A stretch of 64,000 nucleotides of DNA from Nitrososphaerota archaeon (GCA_011605725.1 JAAOZP010000017.1:288001-352000); one strand, 5' to 3'. Positions 11,934 to 29,900 are shown, counted from the stretch's first letter. Notes: generated by a model not told the origin, from the letters alone. Translations and numbers: made by a program.

Positions 11934-12878
11934 TCATGCGAGCTTCTCGTTAAGCATTTCTACAAAATCCAGGAGTTTTCCGCGTGGAATCATTGCCCCA
12001 GCCGCGTTAGCATGCCCTCCACCTAAGCCTCCGAGCGCCTCGGCAACGCTCGACGTGATCCTGTGAAGATTCCTTAATCCAATAGATCTAATGCTTAGAT
12101 CGATTTTTTCACCATGCTCATCAGCCGCAACCCCGATTATTGTTTCACCGTAAGCCCTAGCGTAGGTTGCAGCCTTTCCAAGCGACCATTCCACGTTCAC
12201 AACGTACGATACATTACCATGAGTCTTCACCAGGCTTTTCACAACTCGGCGCATCTCCTCGTCTCTCTCTGCCTCCCGTAAAGCCATTTCAACCAGGTTT
12301 CTATCAGCACTCGGAAGCTTGTTTTCAGAAAGATAGTTGACGAGGCTTCTCTTAAAATCGAAATCCATCCTCCTGACTCCCTCCAGCGCAGCCACCAAGA
12401 TGCCGGCTTCCAGGTAGAGCTCCCTCTTATCCCATTTTTCAAGCAGTCTCCTTACCCCGGGCGTGTTATCACTATAGTCGCCTATCGCACCGTAGATTGC
12501 AACCCTGCTCATCTCAGGCTCCAGATCATTCTTAAAACAGGTGTAGGCGAGCTCGGAGGCACATGCGCCCCTAACCCCTTTAAGCGTCCTCACAGGCAGC
12601 TTATTCACGTTCAATCCTTGAGGAAGCGGATGGTGATCCAGGTAGATAACCTCGTTTTTTAAACTAAGCCTCTTAAACTCTGAAATTATCTCATTCTTGT
12701 GCTTCGAGGTTAATGCTACATCAAGTATAATGATGCTTCCGGCTTCAATAGACTTAAGCTCTGACAGAAGACCCGCAGGGTTTGTGAATACTACTTTGGC
12801 ATCCCTCCTTGCAGCTAGGACTATTGAGGCTGCGCAGACTCCGTCGCAATCCCCGTGTGCAAGAATAATCTGCCCCAT
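11934..12878 (-). CDS. DHH/DHHA1-family phosphoesterase (RecJ/NrnA-like)
   Basis: HGDCDG, ILDVA, YLDHH, GGGHANAAG. Confidence 0.88.
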   Translation of the reverse strand: MGQIILAHGDCDGVCAASIVLAARRDAKVVFTNPAGLLSELKSIEAGSIIILDVALTSKHKNEIISEFKRLSLKNEVIYLDHHPLPQGLNVNKLPVRTLKGVRGACASELAYTCFKNDLEPEMSRVAIYGAIGDYSDNTPGVRRLLEKWDKRELYLEAGILVAALEGVRRMDFDFKRSLVNYLSENKLPSADRNLVEMALREAERDEEMRRVVKSLVKTHGNVSYVVNVEWSLGKAATYARAYGETIIGVAADEHGEKIDLSIRSIGLRNLHRITSSVAEALGGLGGGHANAAGAMIPRGKLLDFVEMLNEKLA

Positions 12879-12946
12879 TCTCCACCTAACTTTGAAACCC
12901 CGCAGTATAAAAAGATGCCTCATCCAAGCAGTGTTTAGCTCACGCT

Positions 12947-14167
12947 TTAAAGCTCTTTCTGCGGATTCATGTTTGCGAAGAATTCTTTAATCTCGTTTAA
13001 ATCACCAGCATAGGAGTTTACGATCCTCGCTTCAACCTCCCTAACGAATTCCCTTGTGAACTCAACGGGCAGCGTAATGTTCTCGTCGATAAGGTCTATT
13101 GCGAGCGGCAGTCCCGTCGCCATGTTGAAGTTTTCAATGCTTGAGAAAAGCATATTCATCACGTAATTCTCTGAGCCGAGCGGAACCTCAAGCTCGAAAG
13201 GCGGATTCTCCTCGCTCACTTTGACTTGAAGCCTGTTAAGCCTGGATTGAAGCTTCTCAGCATAATCCTCGGGCACGCCCAGAACCTTCGCCAGCCTCTC
13301 CACAGCCCATTCGACAGCCTCCTCGAAAGCATCCTTAGGGTCACGGTATTTTTCTCGAATCAAAAGCTCGCTAACCCTGCTGTAAACCCTTTGAAGCTCA
13401 GCTTTTCCAAGAAGCTCCTTATAATCCAGGATTGCAGGCGGATTCATCAAATTATGCAGTATCTGCTTATCCAGATGGTTTACTAAAGGGCTTTTCACAC
13501 CGTCTTTAACAGACAGCCAGCCTCCTATAGCTCTGCTCCTACCTCTTTTAATGATTCCGGCGCATCTTCCAGAATCCATTAGCACACTAGTTATTTTCAA
13601 TATTTCTCCAGTGGTTTTAAAGATTTCCTCCCTGATTTCCCTGGGGACAGGAAGGCTCTTCGCAATCCTCGCGATCCTGAAGAGAGGATACGCGAAGCTG
13701 AGGAAGCTTCCGTCTAAAAGAAGCAGATCCGGGTTTCTCTCAAGAGCCTTCAGAGCCGCCACTCTTTCAAGAAGGGTTTCCTTAACGCTTAGAATTATGC
13801 TGAAAAGCTCTCTACTGTAGGCTTGGCTTTCACCTATGTTTCCAGGAAGATAACCCTCGTCAACAATGTTCTTACCCTTAACCATGATGAACCCTGCAGC
13901 GTACACGGAGAATTTTGCGCCAATAGTCTCAGCAGGCCTCGGGGAGAAGGAGCCGTCGACCGCAGCAATAGATGTTTCCCCTGACTGTCCGAAGCTTAAT
14001 GTTCGCACGTATGGAGCTATCCTGTGTTTCACAGACTCCATTATGAGCCTGAAACCGTCTATTACCCCTATCAGCCTCCTGGCCTCGTCTTCAGCCTTCT
14101 CGTAGAACTGCTCTTGAAGGTCTATCGGGAGCCTGCTCCATGCGGTTTCAGAAGCCATGGACATCAT
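12947..14167 (-). CDS. nurA: NurA-family nuclease
   Basis: AAVDGS, LLLDGS, GIIKR, GLPLAIDLID; overlaps herA. Confidence 0.82.
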   Translation of the reverse strand: MMSMASETAWSRLPIDLQEQFYEKAEDEARRLIGVIDGFRLIMESVKHRIAPYVRTLSFGQSGETSIAAVDGSFSPRPAETIGAKFSVYAAGFIMVKGKNIVDEGYLPGNIGESQAYSRELFSIILSVKETLLERVAALKALERNPDLLLLDGSFLSFAYPLFRIARIAKSLPVPREIREEIFKTTGEILKITSVLMDSGRCAGIIKRGRSRAIGGWLSVKDGVKSPLVNHLDKQILHNLMNPPAILDYKELLGKAELQRVYSRVSELLIREKYRDPKDAFEEAVEWAVERLAKVLGVPEDYAEKLQSRLNRLQVKVSEENPPFELEVPLGSENYVMNMLFSSIENFNMATGLPLAIDLIDENITLPVEFTREFVREVEARIVNSYAGDLNEIKEFFANMNPQKEL

Positions 14168-15633
14168 TTCCCCGGCTTGAAAGATATTAAGAGAGGTATC
14201 GGCGACGGGTTCGCCTTCCCAACGAAGTAGAATTGGCCTGGCTTCAGCGAGAGAAGATACTCCCTCTGAATCCCGTAGGGCTTAAGCCAGTTATCAGCCT
14301 CCTGCATGTCGAGCGGGTGAAGAGCTCCGAAGAACTGCGTGTTAAGGTTTCTTCTTACAGCAGCGTTTATACCTATGTCTCCAGCTATCCCTTGAGATAT
14401 TAAAACGATGCAAAGCCTATGTTTCCTCCCCAGAGCACAGAGGTTCTTAATGTGTTCCGTAGTCTCGTATTGGATTCCCCGGGGCTCCCATGGAGCGTAT
14501 TGCGGCCCCTCGTCTATAACGAGCGCTACTCCAAGCGACTCCCCTAGCTCCATACCCTCCTCCAGAAACCTTGCGAGAGAGTTGAAGAAGGAGAGCTTCT
14601 CGTCACTCCCCACCAGGCTCATGTCCACGATTCTAAGACCCTTCTCGTCTCTCCTCAAATCCTCCACGAGGCCCTCGATGCTTAACGAGCCTCTGACAGC
14701 CTCCAGGTCGATCGGCCTAAGCTTCTTGAAACCATACTCCAACCGGCGTAGAGCAGTCCTTTTAAAATCCTCTCTAGTCGAGGACTGTCTAATACTGTTT
14801 TCCAAATGATTCTTCATGTCTAGAAACATTTCTTCAGACGATTTCTGACTCACCTCCTCCCATCTTCTCGAAACATAGTCTTCAAGAGCCTCCCTTACAG
14901 GGTTAGAATCCCTAGCTTGCCCAGTATAGCCGAAGTGCTCGGCCTTCTCCAGTATGTATCTAACTATCGCCTCTTCATCAAGCTTAAGGTAGGAAATTGG
15001 AACCGCCTTATCCTTATAGTGTGGAGCATAGTCTTCACCACTCCAGTCTAGAATCAGAACTTTGAAACCGGATTCAAGAAGAACAGGGACTAGGACGAAC
15101 CTTGTCAACCAGGACTTACCGCTTCCCGTTGCGCCAAACACGCCGACATGGTATGGCAGGAAGGAGCTGTCGAAAGGTATTTTCCAATCCTCATGCCCCT
15201 CTAGACAAGCGTTCCAGACAACCGGCTTGTTCCTCGCAACGTACTCGAGAGGATTGGAAACACCCGGCTTAAACATGTAGACGCTGCTTCTAGGAGGTAT
15301 TATCATCCGGTTCTGCTCAATCCCGTTATCGGTTAAAACCCCTATCACCATTATTTCGAAAGTATATATCTCTCTGGCTCCTGAAGGCACTCCCCCCCTC
15401 TTAGCATATGCGACACTCGGCCTGTAAGCGTTAGCCCTAAGAGCCTCGTTTACCCCGCTTCCGCTTCTAAGAACCCCAAGCACTTCGCCAATAGGCGTCT
15501 CAATCACAACAATCTCCTCAGCCCTAACCTTAAGCTCCTTCTCCTCCTCCAATAGAAGCCTAGCCCTAGTTTCGCTGGAGTCGCTAGCAACAATACCGAT
15601 CTTCTCCAGGTTCCTATCGTCGAGCAGACGCAT
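14164..15633 (-). CDS. herA: HerA-family helicase/ATPase
   Basis: N-terminal HAS-barrel-like region, HVGVFGATGSGKS, ILDWSGEDY, LVIDEG, GRKH, ISQ. Confidence 0.88.
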   Translation of the reverse strand: MRLLDDRNLEKIGIVASDSSETRARLLLEEEKELKVRAEEIVVIETPIGEVLGVLRSGSGVNEALRANAYRPSVAYAKRGGVPSGAREIYTFEIMVIGVLTDNGIEQNRMIIPPRSSVYMFKPGVSNPLEYVARNKPVVWNACLEGHEDWKIPFDSSFLPYHVGVFGATGSGKSWLTRFVLVPVLLESGFKVLILDWSGEDYAPHYKDKAVPISYLKLDEEAIVRYILEKAEHFGYTGQARDSNPVREALEDYVSRRWEEVSQKSSEEMFLDMKNHLENSIRQSSTREDFKRTALRRLEYGFKKLRPIDLEAVRGSLSIEGLVEDLRRDEKGLRIVDMSLVGSDEKLSFFNSLARFLEEGMELGESLGVALVIDEGPQYAPWEPRGIQYETTEHIKNLCALGRKHRLCIVLISQGIAGDIGINAAVRRNLNTQFFGALHPLDMQEADNWLKPYGIQREYLLSLKPGQFYFVGKANPSPIPLLISFKPGK

Positions 15634-16472: not shown

Positions 16473-16733
16473 CTCTGAAAAGCGCCTAACGCCTTTTAAG
16501 GATTTATGAGAAAGATTTCTGAAACCCGGAGAGTGGTCATGTAAAGTTGTCGAACAAAGTAGGCAGATGTTTGCTAAGGTAAACGGTTTCTACTTGCTGG
16601 TAAACAGAGAATCCAGATGAGACCGTCATCACCCCCAACACCTGCAGTAGCCTTTATCCGCCTGGTTTTCAAGAGGATTAGGGCTTAAATTCTAAGCCCC
16701 GGTCTGGCTGAGAACAGCATATATAAATCTTCC

Positions 16734-16790
16734 GTCAGTAAATTTTTACCTACAGTCAGCGAAAATTTTCGCTTACCTCATACTATAAAT
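16734..16790. promoter_or_regulatory. Tandem palindromic operator candidates plus TATA box for the 16825 operon
   Basis: GTCAGTAAATTTTTAC (16734) and GTCAGCGAAAATTTTCGCT (16755); perfect 16-bp palindrome at 16758-16773; TATAAAT at 16784. Confidence 0.6.
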
Positions 16791-16824
16791 ACACGTTTAA
16801 CAATGCTTCTATACGTGGTGGGGA

Positions 16825-18183
16825 ATGAGCATCGTTAAGACCATCCTGAAGCTCGTTGCAGTAATCGTTTCAGGAAGCCTGGTTAAAAAGCTTTTAGATT
16901 CTATCGGGTATTCCCTCGGCTTAGACCTGGGAGGCTTGACGAGCCTGATCACCGTGGCGGCAATGGTGTTCTTAACCATATACCTATTTTCACCGGGAAA
17001 GTATTTTAAAAACGGTTTGAGAAGGGTCTTTGAAAAAGTATTCTCCTTCCTACTCATCTGGTTGACAGCAGCATTCTCCTCAGCCCTCTTCCACACTAAG
17101 TACTATACTCAAATAGGATTCGTAGTGGCACTCCTATACATTGTCCTAACTATTCGCAAACCCGTGAACATTGGGATTAGGCTGAATAGGCTGAGGATAG
17201 TAAGCAAGGAGGAGCCTGCCCAGCCTGAAGACCACATGATCCTCCTGTCCCTTGCGCCAGTTCCTAGAGTTGCTTTCCTTCACGGGTTTGGCCCAAGCGG
17301 CTTACTGAAATTGTTAACAGGAGGGGCGAGGCTCAGCCTGAAGCTTCCTGAAGACGTCTTTATAGAATCCTTTAAGCATCGCCAGACGCTTAGGCTCAAG
17401 GGAAACCTCTCCACCCTTGTGGAAGCTGTGGGAAAGGGCGTAACGGGCAGTATCGCCATACTCTGTGAAGCCAAGCCCGCAAGAGAGTTTATGAAGATTG
17501 AGGTTGCTTCTGATAATCCGCAGGCTCTCGAGGGGTTCACTGAGAAGCTGAAGGAGACAGGCCCAGGCTCCCAGCATGGTGTACGGCGGGCTTTGGAAGA
17601 ATGGCTCTCTCTGAAACCATACGTAACACCGGTTCCTGAGCTGCTGTATCCAAACCCTATTCTGCTAGCTGGGAGGCTGCTGATAGTGGGTGAGAGAAGG
17701 AATGCGGAGGATCTTGCCCTCCAACTATGCCTCTCGCAGTTAAGGAGGAACTCGGTGAGCCTCGTGGTGGAAGGGAGAGCCGGGAACGTTGAGGATGATG
17801 TGAGAATGAGGCTTGTTGAAAAAGGTTTTAAGCCTAGTGGGAACAGGCTGCTTAAGAAGCCTTTTGAAACCTACAGGTGTCGCGACGGGATGGAGGTGGT
17901 CTTCGCCGACAAGCCGTCCGGCGGGGCCTTTCTTAAGAAAAAACCGTCTAAACCCTTAGTCGCCGTCTGGTTTAGAGACCTTGTTCAAAACCTCGATGTG
18001 AACGCCCCGATCAGAATACTGACGCTTGGAAAACCATGGGCGTGTTCAAGCTTTGAAGCGGACAGCATCATCCTCATAGGCTGCGAGAAGGAGCTGGTCG
18101 AATCGTTTCTACCATCCAGAGGACTTGCACTCGAGGGGAAGACTGTCCTGGTCTCACGACAGGGGGTGAGGGTGCTGAAATGA
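16825..18183 (+). CDS. Membrane protein (about 4 N-terminal TM) with degenerate P-loop-like C-terminal domain
   Basis: Hydrophobic N-terminus; GRLLIVGERRNAEDLAL...SLVVEG resembles an eroded HerA/VirD4 Walker A strand-helix-strand. Confidence 0.6.
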   Translation: MSIVKTILKLVAVIVSGSLVKKLLDSIGYSLGLDLGGLTSLITVAAMVFLTIYLFSPGKYFKNGLRRVFEKVFSFLLIWLTAAFSSALFHTKYYTQIGFVVALLYIVLTIRKPVNIGIRLNRLRIVSKEEPAQPEDHMILLSLAPVPRVAFLHGFGPSGLLKLLTGGARLSLKLPEDVFIESFKHRQTLRLKGNLSTLVEAVGKGVTGSIAILCEAKPAREFMKIEVASDNPQALEGFTEKLKETGPGSQHGVRRALEEWLSLKPYVTPVPELLYPNPILLAGRLLIVGERRNAEDLALQLCLSQLRRNSVSLVVEGRAGNVEDDVRMRLVEKGFKPSGNRLLKKPFETYRCRDGMEVVFADKPSGGAFLKKKPSKPLVAVWFRDLVQNLDVNAPIRILTLGKPWACSSFEADSIILIGCEKELVESFLPSRGLALEGKTVLVSRQGVRVLK

Positions 18184-19403
18184 GGGTTGTGTCCGAGCAG
18201 AGCCTAGGATTGCTCGAGGCTTCTGCGAGAATAGGCGTAGCCGGGAGCAATTTCAAGGCTGCTCTCATATACCTGATTCAAAACGTGTTTGAGGATGCTA
18301 AGGTAATCCTGTTCGACTTAAACGACGAGTTTAGCTGCGTGGCAAGAATAGGTTCGACTAGATACTATGAGGTTGTGAAACACGGCATTAACCCGATTAA
18401 ACCTCTGAATCGTGAAAAGGTTGAGCAGTACGTCGAATCAGTTGTGGAGATACTTGACTATTGCTTCGGGACTTTCAACATGAAGAGCATGGTGGCGAAA
18501 GCGCTTTTGAACAGCGTCTTAAGGTCTCCGGAAACCACGATACCTGAGGTTGCTTCAACACTTGACTTTGAAACCCCGGAGGGAGGGTTATCCGTGTACA
18601 CGCCTCTTGAACCATTCACCTTCGGAACCCTGAGGCAAGCGTTTGGCAGAAGGGAAGCGTTCGAGTTCAGCAGCGTTTTGGAGTCAGGAATGGTTTTCAA
18701 CCTCTCCGGGTTTACAGTGGCTTCGCACAAGGTTTTCGCAACGCTTTTGACGCTGGCGAAGCTTATCCAGCTTGAACCCAAGCATAGGACGCTCGTAGTA
18801 GTATGCTACCCAAGCCTGATATGGCCGAGAAACAGGAGGTTTGACAACGCTAGGCTCTTCGTTGAAGAATCCCTAATCGGAGAACTTGAAAGGAAGGAGT
18901 ATTCAATAGTGTTCGCTGAGAAAAACCTGTCACAGGTTTCTGAAAGGGTTTTGGAGAACCTTGACTCGGTAGTCTTCTCACCTCCCTCTGAGGCCACTAA
19001 CCCGTGGAGGATGAGCCCCGCGCCCGAGAGGAATGCTTCAAACTACTCCATGCTCATCCTTGTTAAGAATGGGGAGTATGGTTTTATAGAGGCTCCTGTG
19101 AACATGCTTCTTAAGCCCCTTAGCGAGAAGGAGAGGGAGGCACGTAAGCCAGCCATGAAAATCTTAAGCCTTGACGAGGGGCTGAAGGAGGGGCTTGGCG
19201 AATCCTATGAGGCAGGAGCCAAGATAATTGGGAAGCTAAGGGGACTGGGTGGAAAAGCTGGCTTAAACGAGTTCATAGAAGAAGTGAGAGCCTCACTTGG
19301 CGCAGAGGGCCTCAGGGCTCTTGCCGCGCTCATAAGGCAGGGTTATCTAAAACAAGTTCGCGAGGGTGAGAAGCAACTCCTGGTTTTAACAGGAGGAGAT
19401 TAG
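18180..19403 (+). CDS. Catalytically degenerate HerA/VirB4-like ATPase with C-terminal wHTH
   Basis: IGVAGSNFKA (eroded Walker A), VILFDLNDEF, GINPIKP, LVVVCYP (no DE), ERKEYSIVFAEKNLSQVSERVLENLDS. Confidence 0.65.
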   Translation: MRVVSEQSLGLLEASARIGVAGSNFKAALIYLIQNVFEDAKVILFDLNDEFSCVARIGSTRYYEVVKHGINPIKPLNREKVEQYVESVVEILDYCFGTFNMKSMVAKALLNSVLRSPETTIPEVASTLDFETPEGGLSVYTPLEPFTFGTLRQAFGRREAFEFSSVLESGMVFNLSGFTVASHKVFATLLTLAKLIQLEPKHRTLVVVCYPSLIWPRNRRFDNARLFVEESLIGELERKEYSIVFAEKNLSQVSERVLENLDSVVFSPPSEATNPWRMSPAPERNASNYSMLILVKNGEYGFIEAPVNMLLKPLSEKEREARKPAMKILSLDEGLKEGLGESYEAGAKIIGKLRGLGGKAGLNEFIEEVRASLGAEGLRALAALIRQGYLKQVREGEKQLLVLTGGD

Positions 19404-19404
19404 G

Positions 19405-20268
19405 ATGAGGAAGCTGAGCACCGGTATTAAGCCGCTGGACGAGCTGACCGGAGGCCTTCCAACAGGTGTTTCAAACCTGGTTTACGGAAGCCCTGGAACA
19501 GGAAAGACCACGATTTCCCTGACCCTGGTGGCTGAGGCTTTAAAGACCTGTAGGGAGAAGGATGTGGTGATAGTTGTAAAAACAGAGGAGTGGGACCCCG
19601 ACCGGCTGAAAACAATATGCGTCGAGAGGGGTATTAGGGAGGAAACCTTGTCAAGGATTAAGATGTATCAGGCCAGCGGCCTCTTCGAGCAGCATAAGGC
19701 GATAGTTGAGACAATACCTAGAGAAGTTGATAAGAACGACTGGGTTCCAGTGCTTATGATCGTCGACTCACTGGTTCCCCATTATCATGCGCAACTATTG
19801 AACACGCCGACTCAACACTTAGCATCCACAGCGAGGATTCTTCAAGGCAAGCTTTCGCTTGAAGTCAACACGCTCGTCGGAATGGCGACGGGCTACGAGT
19901 CGCTTCTCTTAATAACGAGTTGGCGGAGGAGTGAAGCCGCTAGGAGTTTTCAAGAGAAGTCTAGGAGGGAGATGGCGGAAAGCATAGATAAGAAGAGTTT
20001 CTCGATAGACCCTGAAGCCGGGTTCGGTGCCAGGGAGTTCGACGTGATTGGGGGGCAGCATCTCGTTTACATGAGCAAGACCATTCTTAGGATGGTGTCG
20101 ACAAGCCTGGGCGAGGACGTTAAGGCGGTGATCTTGGAGAAATCGCTTTCAAGACCGTCAATGACCTGCTGCTTAGTCAGGATCACTGAGGCAGGCATAG
20201 CACCATATAAGGATATTAATCCGGCACCCGTCGCAGAGATGATTAAGAAGAAAATCCTGAAGGAATAG
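19405..20268 (+). CDS. RecA-superfamily RadA paralogue (RadB-like)
   Basis: LSTGIKPLDELTGGLP, YGSPGTGKTT, LMIVDSL, IGGQHLVYMSKTILRM, ILEKS. Confidence 0.8.
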   Translation: MRKLSTGIKPLDELTGGLPTGVSNLVYGSPGTGKTTISLTLVAEALKTCREKDVVIVVKTEEWDPDRLKTICVERGIREETLSRIKMYQASGLFEQHKAIVETIPREVDKNDWVPVLMIVDSLVPHYHAQLLNTPTQHLASTARILQGKLSLEVNTLVGMATGYESLLLITSWRRSEAARSFQEKSRREMAESIDKKSFSIDPEAGFGAREFDVIGGQHLVYMSKTILRMVSTSLGEDVKAVILEKSLSRPSMTCCLVRITEAGIAPYKDINPAPVAEMIKKKILKE

Positions 20269-21419: not shown

Positions 21420-24400
21420 TTAAGCATCACTAGCTATCGAAACACTCAGCTTCCTGACAAGCGCCTTGTCGAAGACCTTCCTCTGCTTAAACTCCTCCTG
21501 CTTCCCCTGGTTCCACTGCTCTACGGGTCTCAGATAACCGACGACCCTCGAGTACACTTCTGTTGTTCTTCCACACTTTGGACACGTGTGCTGCTCTCCC
21601 GAGAGATACCCGTCCTCCGGGCAAATGCTGAAGGTTGGTGTAAGCGTGAAGTAGGGCAGCTTAAAGTTTTCACAAATCTTCCTCACCAGTGACGCGACGG
21701 ATTCAACTGGAGGGTTGCTTTCGCCTAACCACACGTGAGCCACAGTCCCCCCGGTGTATTTTGTTTGAAGAGGATCCTGGAGTCTAAGGTACTCCCAGAG
21801 GTCGTCAGTATAGTAGACGGGCAGGTGGGTTGAGTTCGTGTAGTATGGTGCAGCACCCTTCTTAACCTCCTCCTCGTTCGCAACAATTATGCTCGGGTAG
21901 GTTTTCTTATCTATCCTCGCGAGCCTGTGTGAAGTCCCCTCTGCCGGGGTGGCCTCAAGATTGTATATACTCCCGGTTTCCTCCTGGAAGTCTTGGAGTC
22001 TCTTCCTCATGTAGTCTAGGACTTTGATTGTGAAGCTGAGGCCTTCTGGGTCGCCGATGCTGCATCCTAGGAAGTTTAGGCAGGCTTCGTTCATGCCGAT
22101 TAAGCCTATTGTGCTGAAATGGTTTTTCCAGTATTGGCCGAAAGCCTCCTTGATGTGTCTCAGGTAGAACCTGGAGTATGGGTATAGGCCTGCCTCCGTG
22201 AATTTTTCAAGCCATTTCCTCTTGATTTCTAGGACGTCTTTCGCGAGGACCATCATCCTGTCGAGCCTGGCGAAGAACTCGCCCTCGCTCTTCGACAGGA
22301 AGCCTATCCTAGGCATGTTTATCGTGACGACGCCTATGCTATTGCCACACCAACAAGATTTGCCGTTTCTTCTAACCATTATCACGTGGTTAGGAACTTC
22401 TACGCAATACACCTTCCCCTTGTAATATACCTTGCTGATGTTTCTTTTCCTTAGCCTGTAATATTTAGATTTTTGTACTCCTATTGTCCAGCATTTTTCA
22501 GTATTTATAATTCTTCCTTTTATTTTCGCTCTCTTTTTGCTCTTTCTTATAGATGAAATCATCCCTATCTTTAAAATTATTTCTTGCATGTCTGCAGCCA
22601 ATCTGTCTGAGGAAGTCCAGTAAGTAGTTTGACCAGTAGTTTTCCTTATATGACCATTTCCCTTCACCATCCAATCGAATAAAATTTTCAGCTGTCTTGC
22701 ACTTAAATTCTTTATTTCTTGAGGTATGTACTTTTCATATTTATTTCCAAATTGTCTAAGGTAATTCCAAAGCTGTTTATTGCAAATAACAAAGCTGCGA
22801 GCTTCTTCGCGATAGTTGAAAGGCAACCTATCTAGCAGCTCTTTTATTTCTTTCCTCTTCTTTCTATTAACTTGAGTAATAAAGATTCTGTAGCCATGCT
22901 CTGCAGCAATATTTTCATTATCAACGCTGCCTTCAGTAAGCCAGATACCGAAAAACTTTAACCAGTCATCCATTTTTATTTTTAAGGGCTGAGTTTCATA
23001 TCTTACCCTCGTCCTTTCTTCATTTCCGTATTTTTCTTTAGTACAAATATTGTAGACAGTTACAGGATCACAGTCAAAGTTCTCAGCTATCTGATAAATG
23101 CTCACTCCCTCGGTTTTTAACTTTCTAATTGCTTCCAATTCCTCTTTCGAGAATCTAGAAACAGGTCCTGTGCCACTGAGAATCTCTACTGAAGGCAAGA
23201 CAAAATATTCTTCCTCGTTCCCATTCCAAACACCTTGCTTAGGAATTCTATGCGAGTTTGGATTAAAATCTTTTGCTTCTACAAACTTGTTCCTCCATAC
23301 TTTTCCATCCCGATATTCAACAAACATTCTATGGTTTGGTGTTACTAAAAGGTCTAAGGATTTATGCTTAAAACGAATCATTTCTCCATCCCAATCATAT
23401 TCAAAAATTCTAATCGGCTTATGAATCTCTATTGTTCCATCTTGTTTCCTTGTGAAAATTTCGTCTTCAAGAGTGAGATCTTTAAATTTCTTCCAACCTT
23501 TTGTCGTAAGAATTTCTGTTTCCTCATCATAACACCCGGTTAGGGGGTTGGCGCCGAATAGGCCTCCGCCCCTCTTCTTCAATTCTCTTTTGTCGAGCCT
23601 CAAATGGCAGCAGTTATGCGTAATGTTTCCGAGAGAATGAATAAACAAGTGGTTCCTTTCAAGCTCTACGTCAAAAAACTCCTGTTCTTTTTCAAGCTCT
23701 ATTAACTCACATTTTTTCACTCTTACGAACATTATGTCCCCGTTAATGAATTTCTTGCTCTCCTTAGTATGCGCATCATATCTGGATAGAGTTTCCACTC
23801 CAACCATCCTACTCTTGTTTAAGCCAGGCACCGCATAAGTCGATTTCGCCATCCGCCCAGGAACTCTTTCAAATAGAGTTGGAGTAGCTTGATTACCAAT
23901 CGAGTTTATTTTCGATTTTTTATGCTGGATGTAGATTCTTTGGCTTTTCCTCTTCTCCTTATAGCAAACGGGTATCCCTAATATGGTGAACAGGATTGCC
24001 AAATCCCGCGCCAATTCCCTATCATTAAGATGTATCTCTTTATTTCTCTCGTAACCATCACCTAGGAAGAAGTATTTTAGAAACGCTTTTATAACTGTTG
24101 GCGGAGAATTAAAAATCACTTGTGGCAACCTCCCGTATTTTTTGAATCCAGCATTATAGAAAGCTCTTGCAATGTCTGTAGAATAAACATAGAAGTAACG
24201 AGTATCATATCGCGTATCCTCTTTCTCTCTAACCGAACACTTTAATACGTCTTTTATAAGTTTTTTAACCTTTTTTCTCAACAATGGATTATTATTCCCG
24301 AAAGTGAATTGTAATCCTTTTGGCAACCTATAGGTCTTCAAGTTCTTTCTATTTTCAAAAAGATAGTTTCCATCAGCCGTGAAGAAACCTAATAACTCCG

Positions 24401-27400
24401 CAAGCTTCTCATCGAGAACAAAGCTTCCGATCTTCTCATAGTTGGTAGCGAGAGCGTGACACGAAGATTTTAAAGTTAAAACTATGTCGCCAGGTTTTAC
24501 GTCCTTCGCTAATTTATTGACTATTCCATTTATTGTAACAACGGGAATTAAATGATTTCTTGAGACTCTGATTGTTTTACCGTCTTCTGTAACTATTTTT
24601 ATCATCTTATTATCAGTGACCTTCAGAAAGCGTTTGACCTTCACCCATTCTGTTTTCCAAGTTTCTGGATTAAGAGATAGAACCTCGACTTCTTTAACAG
24701 GATCAGCCCACCCATCGTTTTTAAATTCTCCAGCATATTTTTCAACTACTTGACCTATAGTTTCTCTTCTCACACTTCCACTATTTCTAATCAAAAGTTC
24801 TTCATCAGGGTGCAAACACATTGAGCGAACGTCTTCAGGATTCATGTCGGAGTTGATGAAGTTTGCGAAGTATGGTATTCCGTATTTCGCGGAGGTTTCT
24901 AATACTGTTCTAGTGGTTTCATCGTTCCATTCGAAATCCCTGGTTATGTTTATGGTTGGGATGGGGAAGGTATTGTGGACTAGCAATTGATCGGCAACGA
25001 AGTTTTCGCTTTCTGTAGAGAAATCATAAACCATGCCATTAGAAGGAGTTGCCTTTTCGATTTTTTTGATCTTCAAAAATAGAATATTATTCTTCTCCAC
25101 TTCCTTTAAAGCTGGAGGAATTTCGATTTTTAACCTTTTCGCATATTCAATCACGTTTTTAACCTTTTGTAGAGAAGTAGAATTGGAATGCGAGATTCCA
25201 AATTTCTTAGAGATTCTGATTTTCGTATTTCGATATTTCCTGCCTAAAGAATCGAAATAATACGGTTCTTTTTCTAATATTTTCTCAAAAACCATTTCTA
25301 GGCCGCTTTCCTTTATCGGAATTTTGGAAATGCTGTATGAATCCTTGGGATGCAGTTTTCTATCTCGCCAGACAGTTATTCTCCATGTTGGTTTTCCATC
25401 TCGATAATACTCGGTTAAAGTATGGAAAACTCCTAATTGCTTTAAAAGAACAGAGATACCATATATTAGCTCTCGCGAAACAGAGTTGACAACAATGTTT
25501 TCAGTTAACCAAGCATCACCCTCAAAATAGGCGAGGAGGAAACTTTTTTTAATTTCTTGCGGAGCTTCGAAAATTATCTGAGGAACCCTCCTTCCAGTAC
25601 CGGTCCCAACCTTAAATATTTCAGTTATTACCATTCTCAAGAGTTTTGAATGCACTCTTACCTCTATCAGGTTCCTATCCTTAACTTCGCGTAGGCAGAC
25701 GGGAACCCCACGGAAGATTCTCCTTACTAATTGGGCTACGCGGATAGCCTTTTCTCTCTCTTCTTTCAGGTTGAACCCCAAGCTTATCCCACCTTTTTCA
25801 GCTGAACCCTCAGCGCAATAATACCCTAAGAACTCTGCTAATTCTTTTGTCAGTGGAAGAAGGTTCCTCAACTTTATTGAAGACCCTCTAAGACTTAACT
25901 TCGCCTTTGACAAGTCGAACTCGCTTAAGTAAGCTATATTTTCCAGCGGAAAAACCGGGACATCGTAGGAGTATTCATAGATCCGCTTACCGTATTTCCG
26001 CCTTTGTACAGCTTTTCTAGTTTCCCTGTAGAGTTTTCCCCCTTTGTAAACATCCCTTATGTAAACTCCTCTTACCCCATTCTTAGCAAATTCATTGGCC
26101 AGAGAAATCACCTGGGGCTTTCTTTCTTCTAAGGGCATGAATTTCGGCATGATTAGATAATCACCCTTTTGCAACATTGACGCTTTGAAGCTTTGAAGCT
26201 TTCCCTCTTTCAACACCATAACTGAATGGGAAGGGGTAACCTTAATGTTAAAGCCGCCGCCCGTAAATATTTTTAGAAGACTTTCTGTTGGATGACGAAC
26301 CAGAAAGTTTACTTTGCACCAGTCTATCTTGCCGTCTTTTAATCCTAAGGCCTTTATATCCTGAGCCCTTACGTCTAAAACTTCACAATTGTTTTCCTTG
26401 ATGTAAAGCGGTTTTCCTTTTTCCATCCATTCATCGATATACTCTCCAATTTTTACTAATTTCATCCGTCCAGAATTCTTTATTGGACACAGGCATTCCC
26501 CATCAACACTAAAGACTCTTCCGACAGCGTCTCCCTCAAGCATTACCTCGGCGAGAGCCCTGTTGAAAATATTCATTTCCTCCTGGAATTCCCCGTAGGT
26601 GGCGTCTAGAACCTCCCCGCCTATTATGACGGGTTCGTCACGCATGAAGCCCGGAACCTTGAGGTCGAGTGTCACATTTGAGAAGGGCGTGTTATGGAAA
26701 ACCAGGAGTCCAGCTCCTCCAATAAAGTTCTCTTGAGGCAAATCAACCGAGATATCGTATTCATATTCTTTATCATAGTTGAACTTTTCAACGCCTAGGC
26801 AAATCCTTGCTTCGAAGTCATTAACAAAGTATGTTTTCTTCGGTTTTGAATTTTCTTTGAAAATTCGAATTACGAACCTGTCTCGCCAATTTTTATTATT
26901 CCTATTGAGTTTTTCAGTGTAAACGGCGAATCTAAAATTGTTTTGGCTTAGAAGCAGACTTAGACTTGTGCTCAGTTTTCTCGATGTAGTTAAATAATCC
27001 CAATATTTCGAATATTCTGAACCATCGCCTTTCAGAAGGGTTTTAATAAAGATCTTCTGATATTTGGGAGAAAGGTTGAAGATAAACCAAGGAACAACTT
27101 TATTAAATGATAGGTAGCCGCAGGTTCTGCTAACGACTTCCGCTAAGAGTCCTCTTCCAGTTATTTCAAGAACTGTTTTAGTTTTTCTTCCATTTCTAGA
27201 ATATCCTTTGCCGCGAGCCACTTGACCTAAGGCATTTAAAGCCCTCAAAAGCTTGATGATGTCTCTTGCGTTTTTAGAAGGCGGTTGAGAAACATAGAGG
27301 GGAGTCGAAATAGCTGTATGACCTTCAGAAATATACCAAGCACAAAGTTTTACGAAGTTTTCAAGTAGCTTCCCATTTAAAAACCTCGGATACCATACAT

Positions 27401-29900
27401 CGCTATTCTTAAGTTTAAATTCAACCTTCTGACTCAGATCCCCGTATTTTCTCCAGACGTCGTACCGGATTGATTTTTCCTTTAACCAACTTTCCCAGAT
27501 TCCCCTATCCTTAATTCCAAACTCCTTGTAAAACGGTACGAGGCTCTGCTCTTCCAAAATGATTCTCTCTCTGACTCTTTTCAAAGTATGCGTAGGGTTT
27601 ATCTTAACAAAAACATTCTTTTGAAGACGGGGAAGCTCGTCAATGATTTCCACCAAGTCTATTTCCTCCTTCCTACCTTGATTTTCCAACGACCTTAAGG
27701 CAATGAAGTGGTTTTCTTCGTTCAGATGACGATAATCGTCAGCTATCTTAACATCCTCAGCCGATTTCGGCACTGGATTAAATTCACCGTTAAATCTTGA
27801 GAAGCTGAATAGAGAATGGGCTTTTGAAACCCTTGCCTCGCCACGGTTAGTTCTGATTCTTACGAACTCAGAGTTCTTAGGAACCCTATGCCTTACGAAT
27901 GCTTTAACCCTTGTCCAAACAGCTTTCCCATCTGGATTAAAAGATAAAACTTGGTAATCATCATGGTTCTCCAAGGCATAGCTCTGAGGATGCTTCTCAA
28001 TCACCCTGTAGGGATATTTTTCGAATTCACGGTCAACCAGCCTACCGATCTCAACAACTTTAACCTTCCCCCTCTCCTTAATAACTATTGGCTCATCCCA
28101 GCATAGGCTTTGGAAGCCGACCCTGGTTGGAATGTTCATGTTGAACATGAATTCTTGAAGAGCCTGCTTCACCGACTTGTAGTCGAGCCCGTCGTGTCTT
28201 ATGAAGGGTGCGAGGTAGGTGTCGAAGTTTGAGAAAGCCTGGGCTCCAGCAGCCTCCCCCTGTAGGGTGAACACGAAGTTCACAACATGGCCTAGAGCTA
28301 CTCGGAAATGTTTTGCAGGCTTTGCTGAAACCTTGCCCCTGACTCCTCTAAAACCAGTCATTAAAAGGTCTCTTAAATCCCAGCCTACGCAGTTGCCGGA
28401 TACGACAACTCTACCATTTCTTTCCACGAGTAGAGTCCCATTAGGCACAGTTAGATCGTAAACCTTCCCTTTATATTGAACCAGCTTAGGGTGTTTATTG
28501 AAGATCGGAGTGAGCTGCTTTGTTTGTACTGAAACTATGAATCTCTCGCCATCCCATCTGAGGGTCCCGCTCTTTCCGATTTTTAAAAGACATTCCAACA
28601 CATCTTCAGCGAGTTTTTTCGATCTTGTGGAGAATCTCCTTAATTTCCCATTTTCTATAGTCCCATCCCCCTTAAAGAGGGCAGAGAGAAATATCTCAAT
28701 TTTCTCAGGATCTAAATCCTTAATAAACCGAGGAACAAACTTCTCATCCGATTTTCCGAACTGTTTTAAATAGAAGTAGAGCTCCTTTGAGCAAAACTGA
28801 ATGTGGTCCTTCTCGCTTAAGTTTGGAGAAAACCCTAACCTCTTAATCAGAGAGGCTATCTCCCTTCTGTTTTTCTTATTCCTTTGGCCTATGGAGATTA
28901 TGTAGTCGGGCGAGTTCCTGTCTTTCCTGTCGTGTCTCCAAGCGTTCCCCTCCGCTAGGTACCACCCCATGAACTTGAGAAAAACTTCCATCGGAATCCT
29001 CTTTATGTGTCTTAGCCTATTTCCACCCTTTACCACAGGAATTTGAAAGAATTTAGAATTTCCGCCTCTCCATTTTACCTGTTTAAGAAATTCTGACCTC
29101 CTCTTAAAATTAGTTGGGTTTATGAATTTCCATTTCTTATCTCCTCTTTCTCTGACTAACAACCTGTGTTCAGGCGTTACTCTGAGGCTTAACGACCTGC
29201 TCTCGAAGCAGAATAAAGGACCGGAGTACTCAAATACCTGTTTATCTATGGGATGCTGGTACTCCAAATAACCAGTTTTCAGGTTAACCGTAGCGACCTC
29301 GTCTTGAAGTGTTACGTCTTTAAAGAACTTAAAGCCCTCTTTTGTTAAAACTCTAGTTTGATCGTCAAAGCAGTACGGCCCAAGTATCCCGAGGTTGTGA
29401 ATATGGAAGTCGCCGTTCAAATGGGCTTCCCTTATCTCTGTCCTACCCTTGTTGAAAATCCTGTGAAGCCAGTATTGAGAGATGACTTGAGAAGAAATGT
29501 GGAAGTTTAAAGCCTGCAGCGAGTATGTCGTGTTAGCGTTCTCCTTAACCAGCCAGCTCTTGTTCTCGAGATAGCTGTCGACGAACTCCCTTATCTGAGC
29601 GTGAAGCGCCCTGTAAAGAATGTATGCTTTAGCAACATTGTAGAGATTATTCTCTACGAGTATTTTTTCAACTAGGTCCTGAACCTGCTCAACGTGAGGG
29701 ATTTCGCCGGGCTTCAGCTGTTTCCCTAAGCGTTCAACAACCTGGTTTGAAAGCCTCTCCGCCAGAGCCCTGTCCTGTCCGCCGACGGACTTTATAGCCT
29801 TCCATATCGCTTCAGTAATCTTCTGCCGGTCAAACTCTACTACTCTACCATCCCTCTTAATTATTTTGCTTGGAATGCTGTCTGAATCAATCAGTGACAC
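21420..29900 (-). CDS. nrdD: Anaerobic (class III) ribonucleoside-triphosphate reductase with ATP-cone and five inteins
   Basis: ATP-cone IIKRDGR; exteins GDFHIH..GPYC, GAQAFSNFDT, FPIPT, SMCC, GSIGVVTINMPR, NLEATPAEG, YYTNS, YTGGT, Zn ribbon, glycyl-radical loop RVVGYL; 713-aa extein after removing inteins. Confidence 0.97.
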   Translation of the reverse strand: MSLIDSDSIPSKIIKRDGRVVEFDRQKITEAIWKAIKSVGGQDRALAERLSNQVVERLGKQLKPGEIPHVEQVQDLVEKILVENNLYNVAKAYILYRALHAQIREFVDSYLENKSWLVKENANTTYSLQALNFHISSQVISQYWLHRIFNKGRTEIREAHLNGDFHIHNLGILGPYCFDDQTRVLTKEGFKFFKDVTLQDEVATVNLKTGYLEYQHPIDKQVFEYSGPLFCFESRSLSLRVTPEHRLLVRERGDKKWKFINPTNFKRRSEFLKQVKWRGGNSKFFQIPVVKGGNRLRHIKRIPMEVFLKFMGWYLAEGNAWRHDRKDRNSPDYIISIGQRNKKNRREIASLIKRLGFSPNLSEKDHIQFCSKELYFYLKQFGKSDEKFVPRFIKDLDPEKIEIFLSALFKGDGTIENGKLRRFSTRSKKLAEDVLECLLKIGKSGTLRWDGERFIVSVQTKQLTPIFNKHPKLVQYKGKVYDLTVPNGTLLVERNGRVVVSGNCVGWDLRDLLMTGFRGVRGKVSAKPAKHFRVALGHVVNFVFTLQGEAAGAQAFSNFDTYLAPFIRHDGLDYKSVKQALQEFMFNMNIPTRVGFQSLCWDEPIVIKERGKVKVVEIGRLVDREFEKYPYRVIEKHPQSYALENHDDYQVLSFNPDGKAVWTRVKAFVRHRVPKNSEFVRIRTNRGEARVSKAHSLFSFSRFNGEFNPVPKSAEDVKIADDYRHLNEENHFIALRSLENQGRKEEIDLVEIIDELPRLQKNVFVKINPTHTLKRVRERIILEEQSLVPFYKEFGIKDRGIWESWLKEKSIRYDVWRKYGDLSQKVEFKLKNSDVWYPRFLNGKLLENFVKLCAWYISEGHTAISTPLYVSQPPSKNARDIIKLLRALNALGQVARGKGYSRNGRKTKTVLEITGRGLLAEVVSRTCGYLSFNKVVPWFIFNLSPKYQKIFIKTLLKGDGSEYSKYWDYLTTSRKLSTSLSLLLSQNNFRFAVYTEKLNRNNKNWRDRFVIRIFKENSKPKKTYFVNDFEARICLGVEKFNYDKEYEYDISVDLPQENFIGGAGLLVFHNTPFSNVTLDLKVPGFMRDEPVIIGGEVLDATYGEFQEEMNIFNRALAEVMLEGDAVGRVFSVDGECLCPIKNSGRMKLVKIGEYIDEWMEKGKPLYIKENNCEVLDVRAQDIKALGLKDGKIDWCKVNFLVRHPTESLLKIFTGGGFNIKVTPSHSVMVLKEGKLQSFKASMLQKGDYLIMPKFMPLEERKPQVISLANEFAKNGVRGVYIRDVYKGGKLYRETRKAVQRRKYGKRIYEYSYDVPVFPLENIAYLSEFDLSKAKLSLRGSSIKLRNLLPLTKELAEFLGYYCAEGSAEKGGISLGFNLKEEREKAIRVAQLVRRIFRGVPVCLREVKDRNLIEVRVHSKLLRMVITEIFKVGTGTGRRVPQIIFEAPQEIKKSFLLAYFEGDAWLTENIVVNSVSRELIYGISVLLKQLGVFHTLTEYYRDGKPTWRITVWRDRKLHPKDSYSISKIPIKESGLEMVFEKILEKEPYYFDSLGRKYRNTKIRISKKFGISHSNSTSLQKVKNVIEYAKRLKIEIPPALKEVEKNNILFLKIKKIEKATPSNGMVYDFSTESENFVADQLLVHNTFPIPTINITRDFEWNDETTRTVLETSAKYGIPYFANFINSDMNPEDVRSMCLHPDEELLIRNSGSVRRETIGQVVEKYAGEFKNDGWADPVKEVEVLSLNPETWKTEWVKVKRFLKVTDNKMIKIVTEDGKTIRVSRNHLIPVVTINGIVNKLAKDVKPGDIVLTLKSSCHALATNYEKIGSFVLDEKLAELLGFFTADGNYLFENRKNLKTYRLPKGLQFTFGNNNPLLRKKVKKLIKDVLKCSVREKEDTRYDTRYFYVYSTDIARAFYNAGFKKYGRLPQVIFNSPPTVIKAFLKYFFLGDGYERNKEIHLNDRELARDLAILFTILGIPVCYKEKRKSQRIYIQHKKSKINSIGNQATPTLFERVPGRMAKSTYAVPGLNKSRMVGVETLSRYDAHTKESKKFINGDIMFVRVKKCELIELEKEQEFFDVELERNHLFIHSLGNITHNCCHLRLDKRELKKRGGGLFGANPLTGCYDEETEILTTKGWKKFKDLTLEDEIFTRKQDGTIEIHKPIRIFEYDWDGEMIRFKHKSLDLLVTPNHRMFVEYRDGKVWRNKFVEAKDFNPNSHRIPKQGVWNGNEEEYFVLPSVEILSGTGPVSRFSKEELEAIRKLKTEGVSIYQIAENFDCDPVTVYNICTKEKYGNEERTRVRYETQPLKIKMDDWLKFFGIWLTEGSVDNENIAAEHGYRIFITQVNRKKRKEIKELLDRLPFNYREEARSFVICNKQLWNYLRQFGNKYEKYIPQEIKNLSARQLKILFDWMVKGNGHIRKTTGQTTYWTSSDRLAADMQEIILKIGMISSIRKSKKRAKIKGRIINTEKCWTIGVQKSKYYRLRKRNISKVYYKGKVYCVEVPNHVIMVRRNGKSCWCGNSIGVVTINMPRIGFLSKSEGEFFARLDRMMVLAKDVLEIKRKWLEKFTEAGLYPYSRFYLRHIKEAFGQYWKNHFSTIGLIGMNEACLNFLGCSIGDPEGLSFTIKVLDYMRKRLQDFQEETGSIYNLEATPAEGTSHRLARIDKKTYPSIIVANEEEVKKGAAPYYTNSTHLPVYYTDDLWEYLRLQDPLQTKYTGGTVAHVWLGESNPPVESVASLVRKICENFKLPYFTLTPTFSICPEDGYLSGEQHTCPKCGRTTEVYSRVVGYLRPVEQWNQGKQEEFKQRKVFDKALVRKLSVSIASDA
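22341..23534 (-). mobile_element. nrdD intein 5 (398 aa, LAGLIDADG, HTH insert)
   Basis: LTG|CYDEETEILT...VTPNH...GIWLTEG...MVKGNG...VYCVEVPNH...CGN|S. Confidence 0.92.
23613..24818 (-). mobile_element. nrdD intein 4 (402 aa, LAGLIDADG)
   Basis: RSM|CLHPDE...SRNH...GFFTADG...FFLGDG...FFDVEL...THN|C. Confidence 0.92.
24972..26510 (-). mobile_element. nrdD intein 3 (513 aa, LAGLIDADG)
   Basis: RVF|SVDGEC...VTPSHS...GYYCAEG...YFEGDA...VYDFST...VHN|T. Confidence 0.92.
26691..28109 (-). mobile_element. nrdD intein 2 (473 aa, LAGLIDADG)
   Basis: GFQ|SLCWDEPI...SKAHS...WYISEG...LLKGDG...YEYDISV...FHN|T. Confidence 0.92.
28392..29372 (-). mobile_element. nrdD intein 1 (327 aa, LAGLIDADG)
   Basis: GPY|CFDDQTRVLT...VTPEH...GWYLAEG...LFKGDG...VYDLTV...SGN|C. 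Confidence 0.92.

Follow-up and report, generated by a model that had tools for sequence, protein, structure and literature searches.

A conserved three-gene operon of Brockarchaeota-type archaea encodes a membrane protein, a HerA/VirB4-fold protein without catalytic motifs and a RadB-like ATPase

What is a HerA-like protein kept for once its catalytic residues are gone, and why should its gene be coupled to that of a RadB-like ATPase? The question is raised by a stretch of 64,000 nucleotides from a Nitrososphaerota archaeon (GCA_011605725.1, JAAOZP010000017.1:288001-352000), referred to here as the window, in which three plus-strand open reading frames (ORFs) lie at exactly 16825-18183, 18180-19403 and 19405-20268. 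A first-pass annotation made from the sequence alone had taken the three genes as translationally coupled, and the exact coordinates bear this out, with genes 1 and 2 sharing 4 nt (ATGA) and genes 2 and 3 spaced by 1 nt. We show here that they form a conserved operon of Brockarchaeota-type Thermoproteota, in which gene 1 encodes a membrane protein, gene 2 a protein of HerA/VirB4 fold without catalytic motifs, and gene 3 a RadB-like ATPase that is predicted to be active. In the literature we found no account in which a RadB-like ATPase is coupled to a dead HerA-like protein, and a mention under an arCOG number is possible; public records name these proteins only 'hypothetical', 'AAA family ATPase' or 'RecA/RadA recombinase'.

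Gene 2 is not recognized by the usual family models. At E <= 0.1 it has no match in Pfam or NCBIfam, including the Pfam DUF87 model, and none in PADLOC, and its profile gives chance-level matches only against PDB sequences. Given this last result, the relation to HerA is visible only by structure or by a search of 1.8 billion proteins, and both approaches reveal it. The AlphaFold2 model, based on 24 homologues, is confident (predicted local distance difference test score, pLDDT, 83; predicted template modelling score, pTM, 0.78), and its top ranks in Foldseek are HerA (4d2i), SIR2-HerA, DndH-C and VirB4, each with a probability of 1.00. Its neighbours in the ESM Atlas are DUF87/TraG clusters with template modelling scores of 0.65-0.75. 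The gene 2 family profile, searched against 1.8 billion representatives, retrieves the active DUF87 proteins P0059 and P0060 (E 7.6e-7 and 1.2e-6) and the DUF87 protein P0061, all three with intact Walker motifs, together with two more degenerate proteins, P0057 and P0058. This homology is seen one way only, from the gene 2 family profile to the DUF87 proteins and not from the Pfam model to gene 2. At the level of the fold, gene 2 belongs to the FtsK-HerA superfamily, having a RecA-like core of the additional strand catalytic E (ASCE) type and a helical insert of the HerA/VirB4/TrwB type. The model aligns from its residue 1 to HerA residue 128 onward, so there is no N-terminal HAS-barrel. Thus, whereas HerA carries a HAS-barrel at its N-terminus, gene 2 starts at the ATPase domain and has a probable winged helix added at its C-terminus; and whereas HerA is partnered by NurA, gene 2 is partnered by a RadB-like ATPase, the window's nurA belonging to another operon, which has an intact herA of its own.

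What further distinguishes gene 2 from the hexameric translocases of the HerA/DUF87 family (PF01935) in the FtsK-HerA superfamily is the loss of GK[ST], of the Walker B acids and of the sensor Gln. Its P-loop, GVAGSNFK, lacks GK[ST] and falls 3-4 residues short of the loops of P0059 and P0060. G19, G22 and F25 never vary within it, and position 26 is K, R or S; F25 aligns at or beside the position of the Walker A lysine. The Walker B acids, EE or DE in the active relatives, are replaced by C-Y (consensus T-Y), and the strand is followed by YPS in place of DE/EE, with P211 and S212 invariant. The sensor site likewise reads E-K instead of T/S-Q. This loss of motifs is shared by every gene 2 orthologue found, in all lineages, and yet the remainder of the scaffold is retained: neither the hhhD..E motif (VILFDLNDE) nor INP varies, and across the orthologues hhhDxxGE and NP.K remain invariant. 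The first-pass description of a HerA/VirB4 scaffold with GVAGSNFK and without Walker B acids therefore agrees with the invariant motifs of the alignment.

The C-terminal part of gene 2 is probably a winged helix-turn-helix (wHTH) domain. In the AlphaFold2 model, residues 325-407 adopt a helix-strand-helix-beta-hairpin topology (H-E-H-E-E) at a pLDDT of 82-90, and this region aligns with the C-termini of relatives that have Pfam wHTH matches below threshold (HTH_34, CggR_N, HVO_A0261_N and HTH_45). The terminal wHTH that had been proposed from the sequence is thus favoured by the modelled topology, whereas the Pfam matches are sub-threshold and found in relatives only.

The operon shows no sign of decay. 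Against seven congeners, the ratio of nonsynonymous to synonymous substitution rates (dN/dS) is lowest for gene 3 (0.04-0.08), followed by gene 2 (0.17-0.22) and gene 1 (0.29-0.39). This is purifying selection, indicating that none of the three genes is decaying, and it disposes of the concern that they might be decaying singletons. Gene 3 is the best conserved partner. The three genes occur in order at 15/15 species loci among GTDB representatives, and of the sampled genomes in the three families that make up the window's order, 16/16, 5/6 and 2/2 have a strong gene 2 orthologue, always with gene 3 adjoining. Gene 2 occurs once in the genome, and a tblastn search of plasmid and phage collections with it, though not with gene 3, gave no match. 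All 17 genomes of the window's family possess the operon, as do nearly all genomes of the order, in which it forms a single-copy core set, and the alignments and substitution rates support the view that gene 2 is an inactive HerA/VirB4-fold protein maintained under selection.

Beyond the order, distribution was surveyed in a sample of 401 Thermoproteota genomes. Outside the window's order, this sample yields generic DUF87 matches only to gene 2, and gene 3 is matched in 32/401 genomes, with some matches lying outside the module. Bathyarchaeia-type metagenome contigs carry the same triad, beside ThrRS and aIF-2B. Across classes, gene 3 keeps an identity of 43-44% and gene 2 only about 20%. Housekeeping genes, namely those for single-stranded DNA-binding protein (SSB), ThrRS and aIF-2B, recur in the neighbourhoods of module loci. 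The source organisms of the homologues are named Candidatus Brockarchaeota or Thermoproteota archaeon. The window's own assembly is of 2.2 Mb and 93% complete, and near-identical DNA is present in 20 sequencing runs from 16 studies, mostly of hot-spring metagenomes; all 20 are DNA runs, with no RNA run listed among those that contain the locus.

Gene 3 is, from its sequence, a RadB/RadA-core ATPase that is predicted to be active. The first-pass annotation had noted an intact Walker A and Walker B without the KHR motif that it ascribed to RadB; GSPGTGKT and LMIVD are both intact, and the string KHR is absent. Among 28 family members K34 of Walker A is invariant and T35 nearly so, and D121 and S122 of Walker B and the downstream sensor Q147 are invariant; the catalytic Glu is intact as well. 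When the family profile is compared with PDB sequences, RadB (2cvf) is the best single-domain match at 93 bits, ahead of RadA cores (80-83 bits) and KaiC (53-62 bits). Among family models, gene 3 scores 75.2 bits on RadB TIGR02237, below the equivalog cut-off of 172.4 bits (58.9 bits in the genome scan), and 24.3 bits on Rad51 PF08423, above the gathering cut-off of 22, its orthologues P0063 and P0065 reaching 48.5 and 43.5 bits on the latter. The match to KaiC PF06745 (38 bits) covers residues 5-60 only, that to ArlH is faint (E 0.007), and in PADLOC there is a weak match to mad8 (E 4.8e-6). With RadB, the euryarchaeal RadA paralogue defined by TIGR02237, which together with the crenarchaeal RadA paralogues is its nearest known counterpart, gene 3 shares the RecA-fold core, the intact Walker A and B motifs and Gln sensor, and the lack of the RadA N-terminal helix-hairpin-helix (HhH) domain. 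It differs from RadB by its sub-cut-off score, by a long and strongly conserved loop between TSW and GGQH (L2-equivalent), by a C-terminal extension of about 50 aa, and by its linkage to a dead HerA-like gene at every module locus examined. The genome already has two full RadA genes elsewhere (447 and 429 bits), making gene 3 an extra paralogue.

Gene 1 is the least tractable member of the operon. Hydropathy and the model agree on four hydrophobic N-terminal helices within residues 1-110 (about 2-110), as expected from the roughly four transmembrane helices first assigned to this ORF. Neither Pfam nor NCBIfam nor PADLOC gives a match, and a whole-protein atlas search gave no usable one. There are 18 homologues, each adjoining gene 2, and the gene 1 of Brockarchaeota is homologous to that of the Bathyarchaeia-type loci (hhalign 94%, E 1e-7). 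The first-pass annotation had spoken of two pseudo-ATPases of the HerA/VirB4 fold. This holds for gene 2; for gene 1, however, the P-loop fold is not confirmed (pLDDT 52, hhalign E 0.07-0.1), and structural comparison matches its transmembrane helices only, a wide VIA fold search returning generic helical bundles over residues 1-110 that are uninformative on the cytosolic part. Alignments of gene 1 by hhalign with gene 2 or with active HerA domains are weak (E 0.07-0.1), both aligning GRLLIVGE (residues 283-290) with the strand of Walker A and GRTVLVS with that of Walker B; one hhalign run of the gene 1 profile against the gene 2 profile found no similarity. For residues 120-452, every neighbour by language model is a P-loop ATPase, and several belong to the FtsK-HerA packaging type, but their values of 0.75-0.79 lie below the usable mark. 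In addition, the gene at the gene 1 position in a sister family is an apparently active HerA-like ATPase. Three weak but concordant hints thus make a degenerate P-loop domain in gene 1 somewhat more probable than its absence, and we do not count it as shown.

This sister family, which belongs to the same order, offers the most instructive comparison. Its first gene, of 668-670 aa, combines transmembrane helices and a middle region with a HerA/TrwB-like domain that carries Walker A GGKSSGKT, VIDLYGEY and Walker B VIED and is matched by Pfam TrwB_AAD_bind and DUF87, the former also recalling VirD4/TrwB. An inactive subunit that works with an active paralogue, as the first-pass annotation envisaged, would fit this family, in which the transmembrane HerA has GGKSSGKT, but the operon in the lineage of the window contains no recognisable active translocase. 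Gene 3 of the sister family (L005, L029 and L061; P0087 and P0090) has a Walker A of the form G.PSTAKT, with Ala for Gly before the lysine, and in lineages with a degenerate gene 1 gene 3 keeps the canonical GK[ST]. The combination of an altered Walker A in gene 3 with an intact one in gene 1 occurs in this one lineage, is a single evolutionary event, and gives no more than a hint that the ATPase role has shifted. With its active gene 1 and altered gene 3, the sister family may represent an intermediate stage.

In three further families gene 3 follows one fused protein of 535-698 aa, which runs from N-terminal transmembrane helices through a HerA-like domain, again degenerate, to a winged helix at the C-terminus. 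These fused relatives and P0061 share with FtsK/SpoIIIE and VirD4/TrwB the order of transmembrane anchor, linker, FtsK/HerA-fold domain and C-terminal winged helix. A link to the membrane, via gene 1 or via an N-terminal transmembrane fusion in the distant relatives, is thus supported. A remoter gene-3-like RecA-fold gene (E about 1e-50) occurs in family f13 (L068 and L070), together with a ParB_N protein, a Hel308-like helicase and a transmembrane protein of 690-700 aa that has weak matches to the gene 2 profile. These matches were excluded from the module, and the f13 set may be a different but related one.

What, then, could the operon do? The explanation that we favour, tentatively and at somewhat less than an even chance when taken as a whole, is a membrane-tethered DNA-binding scaffold with a RecA-family engine. 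Gene 2 would serve as the scaffold, probably ring-shaped like its active relatives, and gene 1 would anchor it at the membrane. The winged helix may bind DNA, either bulk DNA or the palindromic operator of the operon itself, and the scaffold would dock gene 3. In the window's lineage no other protein of the operon is predicted to be an active NTPase, and gene 3 would supply the sole ATP-driven step there, be it DNA binding, strand handling or remodelling. The most likely origin is a membrane-anchored FtsK/VirD4-like DNA translocase, followed by duplication and loss of catalysis, and the process that we favour is DNA handling at the membrane, as recombinational repair or as the processing of incoming DNA. 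An analogy, and no more, is offered by the ArlH-ArlI-ArlJ core of the archaellum, in which a small RecA/KaiC-like ATPase sits on a hexameric P-loop protein that in turn sits on a polytopic membrane protein. However, ArlI is an active secretion ATPase of the PilT class, genes 1 and 2 have no sequence relationship to the archaellum core, and archaellin or pilin genes are not present at the module.

Several points weigh against this proposal. DNA binding, complex formation and ATPase activity of the three proteins are predictions from their sequences. A dead motor cannot translocate DNA, and the operon in the window's lineage encodes no recognisable active translocase. The model of gene 1 is poor (pLDDT 52) and leaves its cytosolic part without an assigned fold, and the winged helix of gene 2 (P0002) itself has no significant Pfam match. 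RecA-fold proteins without the RadA N-terminal domain also act in signalling (KaiC-like) and in the archaellum (ArlH), and gene 3 has weaker matches to both. Complex prediction for gene 2 with gene 3 (alignments A1 and A4) returned a score of 0.00, 'no answer', and counts neither way.

The region upstream of gene 1 raises the alternative of a signalling or transcription switch, in which gene 1 would hold the winged helix of gene 2 at the membrane as a transcription factor and gene 3 would control the release or activity of that factor. A perfect 14-bp palindrome, GCGAAAATTTTCGC, lies there between two TATA-like boxes (window 16690-16824). The element GCG[A/G]AAATTTTCGC is kept in 7/7 close relatives, being exact in 2 and carrying one A-to-G change in 5, and related palindromes of the GGAAAA..TTTTCC type occupy the equivalent place in the distant clade of the window's family and in the sister family. 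Such an operator-like site, conserved across clades and unique in the genome, is what a switch would need as a target, possibly together with the membrane-anchored ArsR-type regulator encoded nearby; the binder could be either this ArsR or the winged helix of gene 2, which ends gene 2 in all lineages. In the close clade the membrane ArsR lies upstream of the operon in divergent orientation; in the distant clade its place is 2-3 kb downstream. Analogous genes of 148-150 aa, coding for a wHTH with two transmembrane helices, adjoin the module in two other families, and a membrane-anchored ArsR-type regulator thus recurs near the module in four arrangements. No such regulator was seen at f2, f3, Bathyarchaeia-type or f40 loci. 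In spite of this linkage, we consider a switch unlikely. The exact palindrome occurs only once in the 2.2 Mb genome and sites with one mismatch barely exceed the control, so no regulon is visible. The KaiC match over the N-terminal 60 residues of gene 3 would suit a signalling role, yet gene 3 as a whole scores higher on RadB and RadA (93 and 83 bits) than on KaiC. In addition, a HerA-fold domain of 320 residues held at a dN/dS of about 0.2 would be a large scaffold for a simple tether of the anti-sigma type.

The neighbouring genes bear on a second alternative, DNA import of the Ced/Ted kind. A herA gene (14164-15633; Pfam HerA, intact GATGSGKS and LVIDE) precedes those for NurA and a DHH/DHHA1 protein, and Pfam, the Walker motifs and two C-terminal transmembrane helices confirm the intact HerA-NurA-DHH set and the membrane ArsR that had been read beside the operon. 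Neither mre11 nor rad50 adjoins this herA-nurA-DHH/DHHA1 operon. On the import reading, the inactive subunits would hetero-oligomerise with the neighbouring HerA and feed DNA to NurA/DHH and to recombination by the RadB-like ATPase. The complex would indeed be membrane-anchored, the sister family has a membrane-anchored and active TrwB/HerA-like gene 1, and herA-nurA-DHH adjoins the operon in 7/7 close species representatives. However, herA-nurA adjoins it at 0/10 loci of the distant clade of the same family, and is not within 6-10 kb of it there or in other lineages. With the adjacency confined to the close clade, coupling to a resection module is not a conserved feature, and the proposal that the operon couples DNA entry to HerA-NurA resection is not sustained. 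The synteny that had been put forward as a check is thus found for gene 2 and the RadB-like gene 3, which are always paired, and fails for herA-nurA, whose linkage is limited to the close clade of the window's family. Nor does the genome single out the neighbouring HerA as a partner, since it has at least five DUF87/HerA-like genes.

Among known archaeal membrane systems, the Ced system nevertheless comes closest to a pairing of HerA-fold subunits, having two co-occurring VirB4-like paralogues, CedB and CedD, each described as homo-oligomeric and essential for import (bioRxiv 10.1101/2024.09.27.615246). In contrast to VirB4 and the Ced/Ted ATPases, gene 2 is catalytically dead and lacks the VirB4 N-terminal domain. 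Genes 1 and 2 have no match to CedD or to any other NCBIfam or Pfam family, and the neighbouring HerA reaches only 37 bits on the NCBIfam CedD model against a cut-off of 600. Among the loci read, the conserved set contains no CedA/VirB6-like, pilin-like or small two-transmembrane genes, although no dedicated CedA models were used. A relation to Ced/Ted, as first suggested, is thus not borne out, and we regard import of this kind as rather improbable.

A counterpart of FtsK/SpoIIIE in layout, in which the operon would tether chromosome to membrane for segregation or division after losing its own motor, is less probable again. The fused relatives do have the FtsK domain order, and a single-copy core set in housekeeping neighbourhoods would be expected of such a function; but the ATPase is dead, and the module is patchy beyond one order, some of the gene 3 matches among the 401 Thermoproteota genomes lying outside it. 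Anti-virus defence or mobile-element cargo of the HerA-plus-effector type is very improbable: even though many of the HerA-fold matches are to defence complexes (SIR2-HerA, DUF4297-HerA and DndH) and gene 3 weakly matches mad8, every genome of the family has the locus, fixed and in one copy, selection on it is strongly purifying, the conserved set has no nuclease or other effector gene, gene 2 has no phage or plasmid match, and genes 1 and 2 have none in PADLOC.

Two further observations concern the surroundings of the operon. In the distant clade (L001/L002 and L003), a gene for an SSB-like OB-fold protein (PF21473) and AMMECR1 lie about 1.3-1.8 kb upstream of gene 1, a link to the operon that is conserved only within that clade. 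In the window, a single ORF of 2826 aa occupies positions 21420-29900 on the minus strand, where the local G+C is 0.38-0.41 as against about 0.48 elsewhere. The features of the window are collected in Table 1.

Table 1. Features of the operon and its neighbours, in coordinates of the window
Feature	Position	Strand	Basis
Gene 1, 452 aa, membrane protein	16825..18183	+	ORF; hydropathy; model helices
Gene 2 (407 aa in all), HerA/VirB4/TrwB-fold domain without catalytic motifs (pseudo-ATPase), residues 1-320	18180..19139	+	AlphaFold2 model, Foldseek, VIA-align, Atlas, profile matches
Gene 2, degenerate P-loop GVAGSNFK, residues 19-26	18234..18257	+	Alignments
Gene 2, Walker-B-equivalent strand TLVVVCYPS, residues 204-212	18789..18815	+	Alignment to active DUF87 proteins P0059, P0060, P0061
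Gene 2, probable winged helix-turn-helix, residues 325-407	19152..19400	+	Model topology
Gene 3, 287 aa, RadB/RadA-core paralogue, predicted active ATPase	19405..20268	+	Family models, PDB profile
Gene 3, Walker A GSPGTGKT, residues 28-35	19486..19509	+	Sequence; 28-member alignment
Gene 3, Walker B LMIVDS, residues 117-122	19753..19770	+	28-member alignment
Perfect palindrome GCGAAAATTTTCGC, candidate operon operator	16759..16772	.	Sequence, conservation
Membrane-anchored ArsR-type wHTH, 180 aa, 2 C-terminal transmembrane helices	15930..16472	-	Pfam HTH_5; transmembrane helices
herA-nurA-DHH/DHHA1 operon, neighbour, outside the conserved module	11934..15633	-	Pfam; intact HerA Walker motifs

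A membrane-tethered scaffold with a RecA-family engine, the explanation that we favour, has a bolder version, for which we see only a small chance: both HerA-fold subunits would have turned into non-catalytic scaffolds and passed the energy step to the RecA-family ATPase, giving a new class of membrane DNA machine. If true, such a class would serve in the uptake or transfer of DNA, or in recombination coupled to the membrane, among uncultured thermophilic archaea, the hosts of the operon being uncultured organisms from hot springs. As far as our literature searches reached, there is no earlier description of HerA/VirB4 pseudo-enzymes that have long been retained in obligate partnership with a RecA-family ATPase. 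Many archaeal RadA paralogues are unassigned, and for one of them the operon suggests a candidate function; it may also be an additional archaeal route that joins DNA and membrane, beside Ced/Ted. As a natural series from active to dead motor subunits, the module is useful for understanding how hexameric translocases become scaffolds.

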